Shown here: one piece after another, positions 2,917-63,619 of the stretch
How the letters are laid out: every line of letters starts with the position of its first letter
How positions within the stretch are numbered: the first letter of the stretch is position 1
IMG/VR virus record: IMGVR_UViG_3300024331_000007
Location: 256,001-320,000 of that record
Origin: a virus
Taxonomy: Duplodnaviria > Caudoviricetes
Length of the DNA: 64,000 nucleotides
Direction: 5' to 3' (one strand)
Made by a program: the position numbers and the translations under genes
The notes under the pieces: model-generated
What the model was told of the DNA's origin: nothing
Databases searched by the model: none
Seen by the model: only the letters and a program-made list of their open reading frames with translations

Positions 2917-3164
2917 TCTAGTTTCTTCATCATTTTTCTTGTAATAACATTCCATGCATTTTCCCATGCTTTCGGTTGAGATTTTGTGCTGTATCCGATC
3001 CACACTTTCCCAAATTCATCTCCATAAATTTGGTAATGGACTGTATTGTCATCGAATGTCAATTTCATGCATCCAGCGTCGGGATATACCGCAACAACAT
3101 TCTGTTGACTATCAGTATTTAATCCAGCCATTTTTTCAATAGTTGCTGGGGTTCTGTGATTCAC
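2910..3164 (-). CDS. Family B small protein
   Basis: VVAVYPDA...PKAWENAWNVITRKMMKKLEW. Confidence 0.85.
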   Translation of the reverse strand: MNHRTPATIEKMAGLNTDSQQNVVAVYPDAGCMKLTFDDNTVHYQIYGDEFGKVWIGYSTKSQPKAWENAWNVITRKMMKKLEW

Positions 3165-3385
3165 GATTCTAACGTCTCCATCATTCTCTTTGTAATCTCA
3201 TTTGCAGCATCCTGCCATGCTTCCTTCGGAGTGCTTCCTGTTCCTAAAAGGCGCTTGTATGATGATTTTGTTCCTTTGGGTTGGCGTCGAATGAATACAC
3301 CAAAATAAATACGACCACTGGTGCTCTCGCCCTGATATAGGTAAGCTTCGGGATAAATTGATAGCACATGTGGTTTGGCTTTCAT
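3161..3385 (-). CDS. Family B small protein
   Basis: MKAKPHVLSIYPEA...GTGSTPKEAWQDAANEITKRMMETLES; start 3385. Confidence 0.85.
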   Translation of the reverse strand: MKAKPHVLSIYPEAYLYQGESTSGRIYFGVFIRRQPKGTKSSYKRLLGTGSTPKEAWQDAANEITKRMMETLES

Positions 3386-3573
3386 TGTTCCAGTTTCTGC
3401 ACCATTCTTTTGCAAATTCTATTTGCAGCCTGTTCCCATACAGCTTCTTCAGATTCATAGCTAATCGCCAGATACTCCGTTCCGATCCAAACCCCAAAGA
3501 ATCCTTCAAGGCTTTGATCTGTCACAAGTCTTACGTTTGGGTATGCTGCTTTTACTATGTCTTTATTCATCAA
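3382..3573 (-). CDS. Family B small protein
   Basis: IVKAAYPNV...SEEAVWEQAANRICKRMVQKLEQ. Confidence 0.85.
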   Translation of the reverse strand: MMNKDIVKAAYPNVRLVTDQSLEGFFGVWIGTEYLAISYESEEAVWEQAANRICKRMVQKLEQ

Positions 3574-3782
3574 TTCTCCAACTTTCTCATCATCATGCGA
3601 TTTATATCAATCGCTGCATCCTTCCACGCTTCACTTCTTGATGAATGCCATTCGTTTGATATCGGCCTGCCAGTTGAAAGATCAAAAATTGCAAAGAATG
3701 TTTTAGGCGAAAGAACAGTTGTTTCACTGGTAACACATTTTGCTTCTGGATAAACTGTTAATACCAATTTTCTGTTTTTCAC
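3570..3782 (-). CDS. Family B small protein
   Basis: VLTVYPEA...SEAWKDAAIDINRMMMRKLEN. Confidence 0.85.
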   Translation of the reverse strand: MKNRKLVLTVYPEAKCVTSETTVLSPKTFFAIFDLSTGRPISNEWHSSRSEAWKDAAIDINRMMMRKLEN

Positions 3783-3994
3783 GATGCAAGTGTCCTGAGT
3801 ATTTCGTAGTTCAAATTATCCGCTGCTGCTTGCCACGCCATTTCTTTTGTGGTTGACTTTCGCATATTACGCCAGCACATTGAAAGGTTTGTCCCATCAC
3901 TTGTGCGAACAAACCACTGTTTACTGACACGAACGCTCTGAATGCATTTAGCATCTGGGTACAATGACAACACGAATTTTTGTTCTGGTATCAT
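3779..3994 (-). CDS. Family B small protein
   Basis: MIPEQKFVLSLYPDA...EMAWQAAADNLNYEILRTLAS; start 3994. Confidence 0.85.
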   Translation of the reverse strand: MIPEQKFVLSLYPDAKCIQSVRVSKQWFVRTSDGTNLSMCWRNMRKSTTKEMAWQAAADNLNYEILRTLAS

Positions 3995-4206: not shown

Positions 4207-4412
4207 GCTTCCAGCTTTTCCAATGCCAGTCTTCCAAGTTCATTTCGAGCAAATTCCCACGCTGTGTTAGGTTTCAATGATGGACCGCCCATCATTGTAG
4301 GGAATCGAGTAGGCAGAGCCACATAGTAAAAGAATCTTTGACCACCAAAAGACTTTACTTTTCTGAGTTTGGCTTCTGGAAAACTCTGTAGAACTATTTG
4401 TCTTGCTGTCAT
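4203..4412 (-). CDS. Family B small protein
   Basis: VLQSFPEA...TAWEFARNELGRLALEKLEA. Confidence 0.85.
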   Translation of the reverse strand: MTARQIVLQSFPEAKLRKVKSFGGQRFFYYVALPTRFPTMMGGPSLKPNTAWEFARNELGRLALEKLEA

Positions 4413-23863: not shown

Positions 23864-25619
23864 TTTCTTTGACCACCTTGCAAATGCTTGTGCATTTGCT
23901 GATGAGTTCGTCTTTATGGCTGATGAGCCAAACATCTTTGTGATGTTCGCGACTCATATCTCTCAACAACTTCACGGCGCTATCTGTTCCGTTGCTATCA
24001 ATACCAGCATCAATCGACTCATCGATCATAAGAATACTTATCTTCTGGAACAAACTTTCCCACACATCACGGAACGAAAAACTGAGACCAAGACTGAGTC
24101 GCGCCATCTCTCCACGAGACAGGTTACCGGGACTCAATTCTCTGCCGAGTTCTGTAATACCAACCGATAAGTCATTTTGGAATACAACCTCGTGAGGTAA
24201 ACCTAGAGCCGTCAGATAATAATTCAACCTCGCATTCAAATAGTTGAGGTTTTGCTCAATGATCTTTTTACGAATAAAGCTGTCCTTGTTAGTTAATAAC
24301 TTCTGCAAAAATTCCTGATGATCAATAAATCTTGCATATGCATTCAGTTGGGTTTTATCTACATCCTCCAATGCGGAGTTCTTCATGCTATCAATCTGTG
24401 AACCATATGGATCAACTTCATTTTGTTTTTGCTGATATTCCTGAGTTAGAAGCATCAACTTATTGCGATGGGCGTGGGCCTCATCAAGGGTGTCATAGTT
24501 TCGAGTTTCGGGCTTATTGGTAACAGGAATCTTTTCAATCTCCGCTGCCAATGCATCCAAACTTTCATTGATAATAGCCAGTTCTTGTTTGCTTGCTTCA
24601 AGCTTAGCTGATGCTTCAATTACTAATTCACCATGCACGTCTGTTGCAAGTTTCTGCTTGCATGTTTGACAACACTGTTCTTTAAGACTATTCAAGTCTT
24701 CTTCGATCTGCGCCAGAATCTTTTGCTCTTTGCTTTGAGCCAATTGCATCTGGGCCTGTTGCTGTTGAAGGTTACTTCTATCACGCTCAGAGTCGTTGTA
24801 TACTTCCCAACTGGCATGCAACAATAGTTCGTTGTCAATGTCAATCTTTGATAGCTTCTGAATCTGCTTATCCAACTTAGCCAGATTTGCTTCCTTTTGC
24901 GTTTGCCACGCTTTCTGTTTCAGAATGAGACTATCAATCTGCTTCTGTATACGTTTATTAGCATCCTCCACCGCTTTTATTCTCGCCTCTTCCTTAGTCA
25001 TTGTTTCGCGAGCAATCTTGATTTCTTCCTTCAACTGCTCAGCCTTTTCGCTGAGCAATGTGATACCAAGAAGCTGTTCGATGATTGTTCTTTGATCGGC
25101 AATCTTCTGGAACAGGAACGGTTGTGTGTAAGTATTAATGGCAACGATCTGACAGAACATGTCATGACTCATGCCAATGACTTTTTCAATTTCCTTCTGT
25201 GTTTCGCGACTATCTCCCTGAGAAGAATCTTCAACTTCATGTTGAGACTTTGGGAGGTCCTTTAGTTTGTTTATACCATCTTCGTAAAATTCAAGTATTC
25301 GGGGCTTCAACCCGCGCACAATACGATAGTTCTTACCATCAGATTCAAAATCCAATGTGACCACCATATTCTTTCCATTTGATGTATTGACAAGATGTTC
25401 TTTTTTGATTTCGGAAATCGGCCAACTAAACAATGCATATGAGATTGCGTTAACCAACGCAGTTTTACCAGTTCCATTTCTTGAACCAGAGTCCTCTCCT
25501 CCCAAATCTAAGTTTTCGCCTAAAATCAAAACTAGTTCATTGCGATTAAGATTTATAGCCTGAGTTGAATTTCCGACTGAAAGAAAATTACGAATTGCTA
25601 CATTCTTTAATTTAATCAT
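23835..25619 (-). CDS. gp46: Recombination endonuclease ATPase subunit (SbcC/Rad50-like)
   Basis: NFLSVGN, Walker A GSRNGTGKT, coiled coil with CxxC hook (CCQTCKQ), LSRGE signature, IDE Walker B, ISHK. Confidence 0.95.
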   Translation of the reverse strand: MIKLKNVAIRNFLSVGNSTQAINLNRNELVLILGENLDLGGEDSGSRNGTGKTALVNAISYALFSWPISEIKKEHLVNTSNGKNMVVTLDFESDGKNYRIVRGLKPRILEFYEDGINKLKDLPKSQHEVEDSSQGDSRETQKEIEKVIGMSHDMFCQIVAINTYTQPFLFQKIADQRTIIEQLLGITLLSEKAEQLKEEIKIARETMTKEEARIKAVEDANKRIQKQIDSLILKQKAWQTQKEANLAKLDKQIQKLSKIDIDNELLLHASWEVYNDSERDRSNLQQQQAQMQLAQSKEQKILAQIEEDLNSLKEQCCQTCKQKLATDVHGELVIEASAKLEASKQELAIINESLDALAAEIEKIPVTNKPETRNYDTLDEAHAHRNKLMLLTQEYQQKQNEVDPYGSQIDSMKNSALEDVDKTQLNAYARFIDHQEFLQKLLTNKDSFIRKKIIEQNLNYLNARLNYYLTALGLPHEVVFQNDLSVGITELGRELSPGNLSRGEMARLSLGLSFSFRDVWESLFQKISILMIDESIDAGIDSNGTDSAVKLLRDMSREHHKDVWLISHKDELISKCTSICKVVKENGFTTFDFD

Positions 25620-60375: not shown

Positions 60376-60975
60376 ATGAAATTATTGCAATTTCCACTCG
60401 TCGCTGCATTATGTGGATTAATGGTTATCACTCCTATGACTGGATGCTCAGTTTCACAGGCAAAGATCAATACCGTAGTTCAGGATATTGCCACTTACGG
60501 ACCAATTATTTCAACAGATGCACAAACACTCGCCGCTCTTGCAACTTCTCTTGATCCAGCCGATGCTGCTCTTATTGCATCATCAGTTGCAACTCTTCAG
60601 AAGGACAGTGCATTCCTAACTACTCTCAGCAACCAGTATTTGGCTCATCCTTCACCAAGTTTGCTTAACCAAATCGCTGCTCTTGTGAGTGACATCGCAA
60701 CAACTGATTCTGCCGCCTTGATTCAGGTAGCACAAATCAAGAACCCACAAAGCATCGCAACCGCTCAGGCTGTTCTTGCTGCCGTAGCAACCGCAGTTAC
60801 CATTCTCAGTGCATATCTTTCATCTGTTAATGTTACTGTAACTCCAGCAGCAAACACAGCAATCAAAACAATGAAACCTGTTGTACTAAAAACAACTCTG
60901 GTAAGTGAATTAAACAAGGCAAAATCTCAAGGTATCATTCCTGAAAATACTACTTTACAATCACTTGGATTCTAA
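60376..60975 (+). CDS. Predicted lipoprotein
   Basis: MKLLQF + hydrophobic core + lipobox MTGC; Ala/Leu/Thr-rich helical body; GAGGT SD. Confidence 0.75.
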   Translation: MKLLQFPLVAALCGLMVITPMTGCSVSQAKINTVVQDIATYGPIISTDAQTLAALATSLDPADAALIASSVATLQKDSAFLTTLSNQYLAHPSPSLLNQIAALVSDIATTDSAALIQVAQIKNPQSIATAQAVLAAVATAVTILSAYLSSVNVTVTPAANTAIKTMKPVVLKTTLVSELNKAKSQGIIPENTTLQSLGF

Positions 60976-61008
60976 CTTATACTTACAATCACAACTATAA
61001 TTGTATTC

Positions 61009-61029
61009 GGGGCCGAGCCTATCGGCCCC
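61009..61029 (+). terminator. GC-rich hairpin after the lipoprotein gene
   Basis: GGGGCCGA-gccta-TCGGCCCC; no clean U tract. Confidence 0.45.
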
Positions 61030-61738
61030 ACAATTTCGCTGATTGGGGTTTTATGATTTGCGGTCAGATTTACAAAATTACAAATAAAATCAATGGCAAA
61101 ATCTATATCGGTCAAACGATTAGCAAAAATCCATTAACGAGATGGAAAGACCATCTTTCTGTAGCCAACCATCCTCTATATAAAGCAATGGTTTTAGAAG
61201 GTACTCATAATTTTTGTTTTTCGGTAATGGAAACTGGTATCAGTTCATCCTTAACTCTGAACGCCCTAGAAAAAAATTACATCTGCAACAATAAATCATT
61301 TGATCCAAAATTTGGTTACAATACATCAAAGGGAACCGTTGGCGTAACCGATAGACAGATAAATGGTCAGATATATTGTATCCTAAATTTAAGGAACAAC
61401 AAGATATATATCGGGCAAACATCATATCCAAACTACAGAAGATGGAATGAACATCGTAAATATGCAAGTCACCCTTTGTATAGGGCAATGATACAAGAAG
61501 GCATAGACAATTTTTCTTTCGCCATCATTCACAATAACATTCGAACCAGAACATTATTGAATAAATTGGAGACTCAGCTTATATTTTCGAGTCAATCATT
61601 TTTAAAAAATGTTGGCTATAATCAAGATTTTGGTAAATCAAGTTATCTGGTTAAAACATATCACAGACAAGGTTTCAAAGCACAATAATGATTGTATATT
61701 TACAAATTCGTCAAAAATTTGCACAATCTCGCTGATTG
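61029..61738 (+). repeat. 17-nt direct repeat flanking the double GIY-YIG gene
   Basis: CACAATTTCGCTGATTG (61029-61045) and CACAATCTCGCTGATTG (61722-61738), one mismatch. Confidence 0.7.
61053..61688 (+). CDS. Homing-endonuclease-like protein with two tandem GIY-YIG domains
   Basis: GQIYKITNKINGKIYIGQT...R W..H and GQIYCILNLRNNKIYIGQT...RW..H. Confidence 0.8.
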   Translation: MICGQIYKITNKINGKIYIGQTISKNPLTRWKDHLSVANHPLYKAMVLEGTHNFCFSVMETGISSSLTLNALEKNYICNNKSFDPKFGYNTSKGTVGVTDRQINGQIYCILNLRNNKIYIGQTSYPNYRRWNEHRKYASHPLYRAMIQEGIDNFSFAIIHNNIRTRTLLNKLETQLIFSSQSFLKNVGYNQDFGKSSYLVKTYHRQGFKAQ

Positions 61739-61776
61739 AGAACAATTAGGTAATTAAACCTACCGAGGGACTTATC

Positions 61777-61917
61777 ATGAGTGAAGGTAAACTAATAGAA
61801 ACGAGAGGTATAACAACCAATCCTCACATAGTTATCATCGTATCCGAAGACTACCTTGATAATTGCGTTGGCACGAATCAAAAAATGTCAAACAGGTTGA
61901 GCACTCAGCCGTCATAG
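61777..61917 (+). CDS. Possible 46-aa peptide
   Basis: GAGGGA SD 6 nt before ATG; no recognisable motif. Confidence 0.3.
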   Translation: MSEGKLIETRGITTNPHIVIIVSEDYLDNCVGTNQKMSNRLSTQPS

Positions 61918-61989
61918 TACAACACAACCGCTATGATTTCATTGAATCCCCACGAACCCAAAAAGTGGTAGTGGATCAGGAGGGAATGG

Positions 61990-62500
61990 AAGGTTTGGAA
62001 CTTCGAAGATAATCATACGCATTATCTTTTTACCCAACTTTGACGCCTGCGGCGTTTCTGTCTTTAAAAACAGACCAAAATACTCCCTAGAAAGGAAAAA
62101 ACAAGAAAATGCGACGACGAGAAATTGTGGGTTGAGCAAAGCGAAACACACAATTTTGAGGAGACGCGGGTCGCAACGAGACGCGAAGCGGATCGGCGGG
62201 ACCACTCACAAAGTCCCTTCTGCAATGCACTAATCAATTACAATTAAAAGCTATTATCCTTAAAATCAAGGACGGCCCGAGGTGTGTGAACCAAGCGAAA
62301 ATTGCTCCTTTGGAGCAAGACCGGGTTGTGCTTCGCACAACGCCAACCGCTTCGCGGCTGGCCTTACGTGTAAAGAGGTCTTTCGTTCGTCTGCGCTCGC
62401 TCGCGCTCCTTCGTCGCGGCTCCTCGCTTGACTCACTCAATACCATGTCGCTTCGCTCTTTTTCTTTTGAGGAACCAGAGGTTTGTTGTTTTGTTCTTTA
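61990..62500. other. Hairpin-rich, GC-elevated non-coding region (candidate replication/priming site or ncRNA)
   Basis: Stems at 62006-62028, 62123-62155, 62198-62217, 62302-62318, 62325-62341, 62347-62357; GAAGCGG on both strands. Confidence 0.5.
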
Positions 62501-62541
62501 GAAGGTGTTCCGCTTTTCTGACTAAATACGCCAGAGGTATT

Positions 62542-62994
62542 ATGTCAGAAACAGGTCATTGGGTTTTTCCGAAAGAATTTGATCCAGAGCAATTCATAGG
62601 TTTTGTATATCGGATAACTCATATTCCGACAGGCAGATCATATTTGGGGAAGAAATTTTTTCACTCGACTATTCGCAAGATAGTCAAAAACCGAAAAAAC
62701 AGAAAGAAGGTAATAAAAGAATCGAATTGGAAAAAATATACTGGCAGCAGCAATTGGCTAAACTCAGAAATTGCACTGTATGGAAAAGACCAATTCGCCT
62801 TTGAAATTTTAAGTCTCCACGAATCTCGTGGAACCTTAGCATATGCTGAAGTTGAGATTTTGGTTACGAAAAATGTATTGAGGGCTAAACTTTTGGATGG
62901 GTCTAAAGCCTACTACAATGGATTAATTCCTCCCATCAAGTTCACACCGGGAGATGAAACTGAGATAGAAAAGCAGTACAAAATTCAAACATGA
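62542..62994 (+). CDS. GIY-YIG endonuclease, EndoII/DenA-like
   Basis: FIGFVYRIT...YLGKKFF...KESNWKKYTGSS...FEILSL...AYAE...YYNG; TAAATA at 62523 and GAGGT SD; start 62542. Confidence 0.75.
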   Translation: MSETGHWVFPKEFDPEQFIGFVYRITHIPTGRSYLGKKFFHSTIRKIVKNRKNRKKVIKESNWKKYTGSSNWLNSEIALYGKDQFAFEILSLHESRGTLAYAEVEILVTKNVLRAKLLDGSKAYYNGLIPPIKFTPGDETEIEKQYKIQT

Positions 62995-63016
62995 TGTAAA
63001 TTATGGAGGTGCCACA

Positions 63017-63619
63017 TTGTCCGACCAAAATATTTCCAGCGACCAGTTGCACCAAAATTACATTAAACTTGCTAAGATTTTACATCCTGATCTTAATCCT
63101 GATGATCCAGATGCTGACAAAAAGTTCCAAGATTTGCAGGAACAATACGAAAAAGCACAAAAACTTCTCGGAAATAAAGCCCAGTATCAAGCATCTGTGT
63201 CCATTCCTCTTTCGGAAGCGATTTCAGGTACTGAGAGATTCTTTGTTTCTGATGATGGAAAACGATTTTTGCTGACAATTCCTGCTGGTGTAAAAAACAA
63301 GCAGACAATTTTATATAGAGGCATTCAAGTCAATTCGGATAATGATGCTGTTTTACATATTCGTGTTCATATCGATGCCCCAACCAAATTTAAAATTATT
63401 GGTGATCATCTCATACTTAATGAGCACATCCCTTTCTGGAAATTAATTTTTGGTGGAAGGCATGAGATTACTGGACCAGATGGCAAAATAATTCCAGTGA
63501 CAATTCCTCGTAAAACAAAGAATGGAAAGATGTTTAAGGTTCAGAATGCTGGTCTTTGGAATCGAGCCGATAAGAAGAGGGACCCTCTTTATATTCAATT
63601 TTTTGGTTCTGCTATTTGA
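63017..63619 (+). CDS. dnaJ: DnaJ/CbpA-like co-chaperone
   Basis: J domain YIKLAKILHPDLNP...KFQDL; C-terminal domain ISLSEA..G...IPAG...G..MFKVQNAGL; TTG start with GGAGG. Confidence 0.85.
   Translation: MSDQNISSDQLHQNYIKLAKILHPDLNPDDPDADKKFQDLQEQYEKAQKLLGNKAQYQASVSIPLSEAISGTERFFVSDDGKRFLLTIPAGVKNKQTILYRGIQVNSDNDAVLHIRVHIDAPTKFKIIGDHLILNEHIPFWKLIFGGRHEITGPDGKIIPVTIPRKTKNGKMFKVQNAGLWNRADKKRDPLYIQFFGSAI

Follow-up and report, generated by a model that had tools for sequence, protein, structure and literature searches.

What does a gene-free stretch of about 0.8 kb do between the tail-fibre genes and the chaperone genes of a large phage? An earlier note, drawn up from the letters of the DNA, had offered an origin of replication or a single-strand initiation (ssi) signal, with an undescribed RNA as the alternative. 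The comparison of eight homologous regions reported here strongly supports that alternative: because a promoter is mostly conserved upstream, helices covary over long distances and pairing is strand-specific, with G-U pairs far outnumbering A-C mismatches, we think it likely that the region is the gene for an undescribed, large, multi-domain structured non-coding RNA (ncRNA), read from the plus strand in a clade of T4-related jumbo phages.

Genomic setting, relatives and coding content

The window, by which we mean the whole stretch of DNA analysed (64,000 nucleotides), comprises bases 256,001–320,000 of a 359,890-bp virus record that is rated 90% complete. We assign the source genome (~360 kb), that of a giant soil phage, to the T4-related jumbo myoviruses on the strength of its PHROG and Pfam matches; among them are a baseplate hub/lysozyme resembling gp5, a nuclease similar to SbcC and a fibre C-terminus like that of gp53. 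ARAGORN predicted 53 tRNA and tmRNA genes genome-wide, none of them in the window. At genome positions 146104–146480 and 24352–25279, the predictions include a tmRNA-like gene in permuted form and three tRNAs of the suppressor type (anticodon CTA twice, TTA once). The long ORFs of the window read normally under table 11. The region is bounded upstream by a GIY-YIG endonuclease gene (61053–61688) and downstream by a SegE-like GIY-YIG gene (62542–62994, plus strand; Pfam SegE_GIY-YIG, E = 9e-37). Further out, tail-fibre-like genes precede it, and genes for DnaJ-like and ClpB-like proteins, heat-shock-type chaperones according to Pfam, follow the SegE-like gene.

The elevated G+C content remarked on before was borne out (0.43–0.53 against 0.30–0.38 in the flanks), and the AT skew flips from +0.35 (62100–62299) to −0.43 (62300–62499), a switch from purines to pyrimidines near 62300. 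The region is not the only long gap, as had been claimed: within its first 12.5 kb, the window contains four stretches, each 1.2–1.9 kb long, that are likewise devoid of ORFs of at least 100 aa. All six stems named in the earlier note were found (for instance 62006–62013/62021–62028, 62122–62129/62149–62156 and 62198–62202/62213–62217), including both hairpins with TTC loops (62325–62341 and 62342–62362). The complementarity described there between a purine-rich and a pyrimidine-rich block is real in the window (duplex z = −2.9) but significant in only three of the eight sequences, and long-range pairing of the two blocks was rejected as a conserved feature for this reason. Since folding of the single sequence brought just a modest gain over shuffled sequences (z = −1.9 on the plus and −3.0 on the minus strand), the case for structure rests on covariation in relatives.

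Homologues were searched for in viral and metagenomic contigs with the DnaJ neighbour as anchor, which yielded eight distinct regions: the window, L015, L003 (identical to L022), L018, L023, L036, L019 (identical to L020 and L025) and L012 (identical to L021). The locus is constant, lying between the tail-fibre genes and the SegE-like/DnaJ/ClpB block, and in every homologue a gene-free stretch of 0.7–0.95 kb is found directly upstream of the SegE-like gene, the same neighbour at all loci. The spacing of landmark motifs is also kept, at 328–380 nt in the first and 178–197 nt in the last part. In the closer relatives, the nucleotide identity of the region is similar to that of the flanking protein genes: L015 shares 82% of the region with the window against 77–86% of the flanking genes, and L018 shares 71% against 48–67%. 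Four further contigs (L008, L011, L026 and L027) were discarded as homologues because they represent chance matches within unrelated coding regions. Neither the region (blastn) nor the DnaJ neighbour (tblastn) matched any of 50,697 records of cultured phages, and pattern scans of viral contigs returned nothing beyond the same clades. A gapped pattern gave eight matches in a bacterial genome collection, none of which was supported by nhmmer profiles, and these are regarded as chance. Within the phage genome the element is single-copy, without paralogues except for a duplicated leader. Nor does the region resemble an 85-nt antisense cassette carried on homing endonuclease genes.

The view that the region is mostly non-coding agrees with the comparison of relatives, among which no reading frame is conserved and no ATG-initiated ORF of at least 30 aa is shared. 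In four relatives, two or three codons are all that is left of the 46-aa ORF at 61777–61917, the indels between the relatives' regions have lengths that are not multiples of three, and the stop-poor minus-strand frames across 62279–62484 change frame even against the closest relative. A Pfam search of the local ORFs gave no match. Judged by these comparisons, the region lacks coding capacity. In the source record of L015, a called gene of 288 aa (3076–3942) runs through the pyrimidine-rich RNA domain; the gene proper probably begins near 3365, downstream of an AGGAG site, and the frame before that point stays open only through the scarcity of stop codons.

Covariation, strand and domain structure

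The 5′ part of the region, domain A (61690–62065, ~375 nt), was folded as a consensus with RNAalifold from five and then six sequences. It opens with a nested leader hairpin, to which three small hairpins and then a multi-branched core (61790–62065, plus strand) are joined; the core is closed by a long-range helix (61790–61803/62053–62065). The strands of this closing helix are ~260 nt apart, and yet an A-U pair is replaced by G-C through a compensatory change in both L015 and L023. Altogether 97% of cells are paired in domain A, and 23 pairs are compensatory compared with 10.1 ± 2.1 in column shuffles (0 of 500 shuffles reached the observed value), where it has to be considered that only six to eight sequences were used, which are related to each other, so that shuffle statistics overstate their independence. 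Controls in which the pairing partners were slid by one to three columns contained one to four compensatory pairs, and with the sixth sequence included, 32 of the 92 predicted pairs were compensatory. The divergent pair L019 and L012 barely aligns with the other sequences inside domain A; when these two sequences were analysed on their own, the closing helix and the two helices after it were recovered, and 19 of the 55 pairs were compensatory.

As G-U pairs outnumber A-C mismatches by 48 to 4, the pairing can be assigned to the plus strand, which also folds better than its complement in six of the eight sequences. The asymmetry and the better folding of the plus strand rule out a DNA cruciform or a minus-strand product, and on this comparative evidence we regard domain A as an RNA read from the plus strand.

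Inside the core, an inner sub-domain on the plus strand (61888–61998) is built from an invariant helix (61888–61893/61993–61998) around three covarying arms, and a one-sided A to G change in L036 leaves a G-U pair there. Further downstream follows a variable hairpin (62006–62028, plus strand), whose stem differs in sequence between lineages while the pairing, as read from the alignments, is kept. Two terminator-like sites are present in the region. One of them, picked up by a terminator scan, belongs to a plus-strand G+C hairpin that is succeeded by the most conserved block of the region (62042–62070), in which a single degenerate pattern of 19 nt with three variable positions fits all eight homologues. 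The T-rich tail of this terminator-like site (62042–62065) is at the same time the 3′ strand of the closing helix. In most relatives the conserved block runs well past the T-run, which argues that 62042–62065 is more than a terminator.

Domain B (62071–62278, plus strand) comprises purine-rich hairpins (62122–62156, 62177–62195 and 62198–62217) and a subsequent A+T-rich spacer. In folds of the individual sequences the hairpins exhibit a common motif, tandem G-A mismatches around a mini-stem of 2–4 bp with a GAA or AAA triloop, which is favourable only on the plus strand. The sequence of the stems differs in every lineage and the pairing is maintained. Conservation within the region is lowest in the purine block and the spacer, with lengths ranging from 129 to 227 nt.

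The pyrimidine-rich domain C (62279–62454, plus strand) has a possible closing helix (62279–62284/62449–62454) and three hairpins, the first nearly invariant (62325–62341), the second strongly covarying (62342–62362) and the third long and irregular (62377–62444). Of its 39 pairs, 14 are compensatory, again exceeding the shuffles (6.5 ± 1.7; 0 of 500). The 19 G-U pairs against three A-C mismatches derive mostly from the closing helix, in which all changes are one-sided; folding energy has no strand preference, and the unpaired bases are rich in U and C, which is unusual for a structured RNA. The plus strand is thus a less secure assignment for domain C than for domain A. An RNA from the minus strand would turn the unpaired bases into purines, and was rejected because the closing helix forms only on the plus strand; inspection by eye revealed no conserved minus-strand promoter or terminator for this domain. 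Kissing between GAA and UUC triloops was likewise dismissed, since the variants in the relatives (UAC, CUC and UGUC as opposed to GAA and AAA) do not covary by eye. In L012, a 14-nt direct repeat lies in the pyrimidine-rich domain (4300–4345), and a larger hairpin replaces the usual second one. Domain C is trailed by a small plus-strand hairpin (62472–62484), whose 12-nt core (62473–62484) is identical in all eight homologues. A T-rich run comes next, and hairpin and T-run together (62472–62490) are a possible 3′ end of the RNA.

Promoter, leader copies and proposed expression

The best match of the promoter scan (10 of 12 positions) is a sigma70-type promoter on the plus strand, TTTACA and TATACT with an 18-nt spacer (60954–60983), upstream of the region. 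At the matching place L015, L018, L019, L012 and L036 have a TTGACA-type box and a −10 box of the form nATACT or TATAAT. The −10 box of L003 is poor, and L023 is without a box beside the leader but has one possible box ~100 nt upstream. In most relatives free of the homing endonuclease gene, the promoter precedes the conserved leader by ~16 nt, a spacing that is ~30 nt longer in L012. No conserved internal promoter was found.

In the window the leader of ~55 nt is present twice (within 60984–61745). Copy 1 (60990–61043, plus strand) is a nested hairpin; its counterpart is the only leader of L015, with which it aligns and shares a G+C-rich inner hairpin. This copy is separated from the RNA body by the GIY-YIG homing endonuclease gene (plus strand; Pfam GIY-YIG, E = 2e-20; PHROG homing endonuclease). 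Copy 2 (61683–61782, plus strand) is made up of an outer helix (61690–61695/61723–61728) and an inner hairpin, followed by three small hairpins. Covariation is seen in both the outer helix and the inner hairpin, and the stem of the latter has a wholly different sequence in L015 and L023. The endonuclease gene is missing at the matching place in L015, L018, L023, L019, L012 and L036, which characterises it, in a comparison of these loci, as an insertion within the RNA leader and outside the RNA family. Because the inner hairpin of copy 1 is of the L015 type and that of copy 2 of the L003/L018 type, the gene seems to have arrived together with the downstream leader copy from another lineage. With this second copy brought along, the RNA body retains an intact 5′ structure in the window. 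L036 also carries the leader twice but lacks the endonuclease gene in between, and this double leader may be the footprint of a gene loss. That a homing endonuclease invaded the locus without breaking the fold suggests that the RNA is under selection.

The following model of expression is compatible with these data. The RNA would be transcribed rightwards on the plus strand from the sigma70-type promoter. In T4-type phages, promoters of this type are read by the unmodified host polymerase early in infection, and the promoter class would accordingly place the transcription in the early phase. Domains B and C would be 3′ parts of the same transcript, the simplest reading given that no conserved internal promoter was found, so that the RNA would measure ~0.8 kb and end near 62484; both transcript ends are predictions from the DNA sequence. 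Sequencing runs looked up for 60900–63100 included no RNA run holding this stretch, an outcome that weighs neither for nor against a transcript. A shorter species of ~375 nt could arise by partial termination at the hairpin and T-run of 62042–62065. The folded RNA would most likely act in trans, and we would guess that, during take-over, it serves as the scaffold or the decoy of some host or phage factor; neither a partner nor a target nor a catalytic motif came to light.

Downstream of the candidate 3′ end, a TAAATA box (62523–62528, plus strand) precedes the SegE-like gene; in six relatives its distance from the ATG is 5–13 nt. An extra gene is inserted after the box in L015. The box resembles a T4 late promoter in the window (62523–62545) as well as in L003, L012, L018, L019, L023 and L036. 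A very small hairpin, ATAY-NN-RTAT in form, overlaps with the start codon of the SegE-like gene in the window (62523–62545) and at the matching sites of relatives, and a Shine-Dalgarno sequence is missing in most relatives. The short distance of the box to the ATG, the hairpin at the start codon and the mostly absent Shine-Dalgarno sequence suggest that the late mRNA is nearly leaderless or that translation of the SegE-like endonuclease is masked.

Alternative readings and known systems

Comparison with Rfam, the check suggested along with the RNA alternative, did not connect the region to any known family. With Rfam 15 at gathering thresholds, the whole window gave no match, including to GOLLD, ROOL, introns, RNase P, tmRNA and 6S RNA, and at E-values up to 10 the region in the window, L012 and L023 produced unrelated chance matches, none of them recurring. 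A group I or II intron was discarded, because the region is preceded by a stop codon and a promoter, has complete genes on both sides and does not fit any Rfam intron model.

A more specific reading goes beyond a structured RNA and sees in the region a new, intrinsically active class of ornate RNA, either a ribozyme or a particle of RNA only that assembles itself as ROOL and GOLLD do, expressed from the early promoter for the take-over or disarming of the host. The arrays of purine-rich and pyrimidine-rich hairpins would then be interaction surfaces. We regard this as possible, if rather unlikely.

Another reading keeps the RNA and makes it a long cis-acting 5′ leader of the SegE-like, DnaJ and ClpB genes, for example an attenuator or an RNA thermometer of a chaperone operon. 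The position directly upstream of the same genes on the same strand in all eight homologues is what such a leader would show, and the genes downstream encode heat-shock-type chaperones. However, 0.8 kb is many times the length of known leaders, domain A is closed and self-contained and ends in a hairpin and T-run, the TAAATA box between RNA and ATG in every homologue suggests separate expression, and no switch by alternative pairing was found. Taken together, a cis-acting leader is improbable.

Neither the origin nor the ssi reading of the earlier note was supported, as the region harbours a strand-specific fold of hundreds of bases in a T4-type double-stranded (ds) DNA phage whose skew is explained by gene class. 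A GC-skew inflection had been suggested as a test of the former. In the 359,890-bp record, the cumulative GC skew does indeed reach its global minimum inside the region, at 318,464 (window position 62464), but a change of gene class would account for it. The genes on either side of the minimum are on the plus strand, and the GC skew at four-fold sites is negative on both sides of the region without a change of sign. Across the genome, the coding-strand skew at four-fold sites is −0.2 to −0.4 in blocks of structural genes irrespective of their place or direction and near zero in most others, and codon usage specific to gene classes looks to be what shapes the cumulative curve. Moreover, the skew maximum is found only 46 kb from the minimum and not opposite to it in the genome. 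Because the four-fold skew keeps its sign and tracks gene class, and because of this short distance to the maximum, the minimum probably marks the point where the structural module gives way to the next one.

These data bear on one version of the origin reading, an RNA-primed origin with a structured pre-primer in the manner of ColE1 RNA II or T4 oriF/oriG, in which the purine-rich stretch 62071–62220 stays R-looped beside the A+T-rich spacer (62220–62278) and DNA synthesis starts there. As in those systems, a promoter-driven structured transcript would be followed by a possible stable RNA–DNA hybrid next to an easily melted A+T-rich stretch; the order of promoter, structured RNA, purine-rich block and spacer fits, mini-hairpins of the GCGAAGC type lie on opposite strands flanking the spacer, and the skew minimum occurs although the flanking genes are co-oriented. 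Against this stand the behaviour of the four-fold skew and the near-by maximum, the low conservation of spacer and purine block, and the terminator-like site upstream of the supposed R-loop zone. Unlike in those systems, neither an antisense regulator nor a middle-mode promoter was seen in the region, a MotA-type promoter having been looked for by eye only. The only conserved promoter is of the sigma70 type and lies 0.5 kb upstream, a distance that the inserted endonuclease gene extends to 1.3 kb in the window. An RNA-primed origin is therefore, in our estimation, about as improbable as the cis-acting leader.

We consider it very improbable that the region contains ssi or primosome-assembly hairpins acting at the DNA level. 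The motif GCGAAGC is present once on the plus strand (62183) and three times on the minus strand (62330, 62350 and 62450), and most loop variants in the relatives fit G-N-A or G-N-N-A on the minus strand. However, a T4-type primase is not known to need a hairpin signal, the genome is dsDNA without a rolling-circle or single-stranded (ss) DNA stage, the paired strands are up to ~260 nt apart and include many G-U pairs, each of which would turn into an A-C mismatch if the complementary strand were the one to fold, and a promoter is conserved upstream in most relatives. Mini-hairpins of the GCGAAGC type have been reported, in a review, at the priming sites of G4 and RSF1010. The region shares the short GCGNAGC motif with these sites, but they are ssDNA signals of 40–130 nt from ssDNA phages or plasmids, whereas here the motif is a minor part of a strand-specific fold of 0.8 kb in a dsDNA myovirus.

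Unannotated small protein genes, to which local ORFs of 46–88 aa on both strands and the nearly stop-free minus-strand frames over 62279–62484 might point, have next to no probability, given the lack of a common ORF and of Pfam matches, indels that are not multiples of three, the change of frame between the window and its closest relative, and the simultaneous opening of several frames that is expected of a T-poor composition.

A large structured ncRNA thus remains the likely product of the region, and it would constitute a new family in a group, that of the large structured RNAs, which has few members. Large, highly structured ncRNAs are, to our knowledge, rare, and each characterised class has turned out to be a ribozyme, the core of a ribonucleoprotein or, lately, an RNA-only assembly. 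The candidate RNA combines clear covariation support from just eight sequences with a defined promoter and a genomic context between the structural and chaperone modules of a T4-related jumbo phage. The locus is also a cautionary case, in that the GC-skew minimum of a phage can mark a gene-class boundary and not an origin.

Among known systems, the T4 stable RNAs C and D, encoded in the tRNA cluster region that also contains the homing endonuclease gene segB, provide a parallel in that a stable-RNA locus of a T4-type phage serves as a landing place for Seg-type GIY-YIG genes. These RNAs are ~120–140 nt long and are processed together with tRNAs, whereas the RNA proposed here has no tRNA neighbours and a predicted promoter of its own, and would be three to six times larger. 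A further parallel is provided by GOLLD and ROOL, large ornate RNAs that often occur in phages and prophages, although the region matches neither covariance model and is not beside tRNA genes, and although host range and phage type differ, the present examples stemming from uncultured T4-related jumbo phages in environmental metagenomes. Like GOLLD and ROOL, the RNA proposed here is a large (0.4–0.8 kb), multi-domain, phage-borne ncRNA candidate with many covarying helices, discovered through comparative analysis of an intergenic gap.
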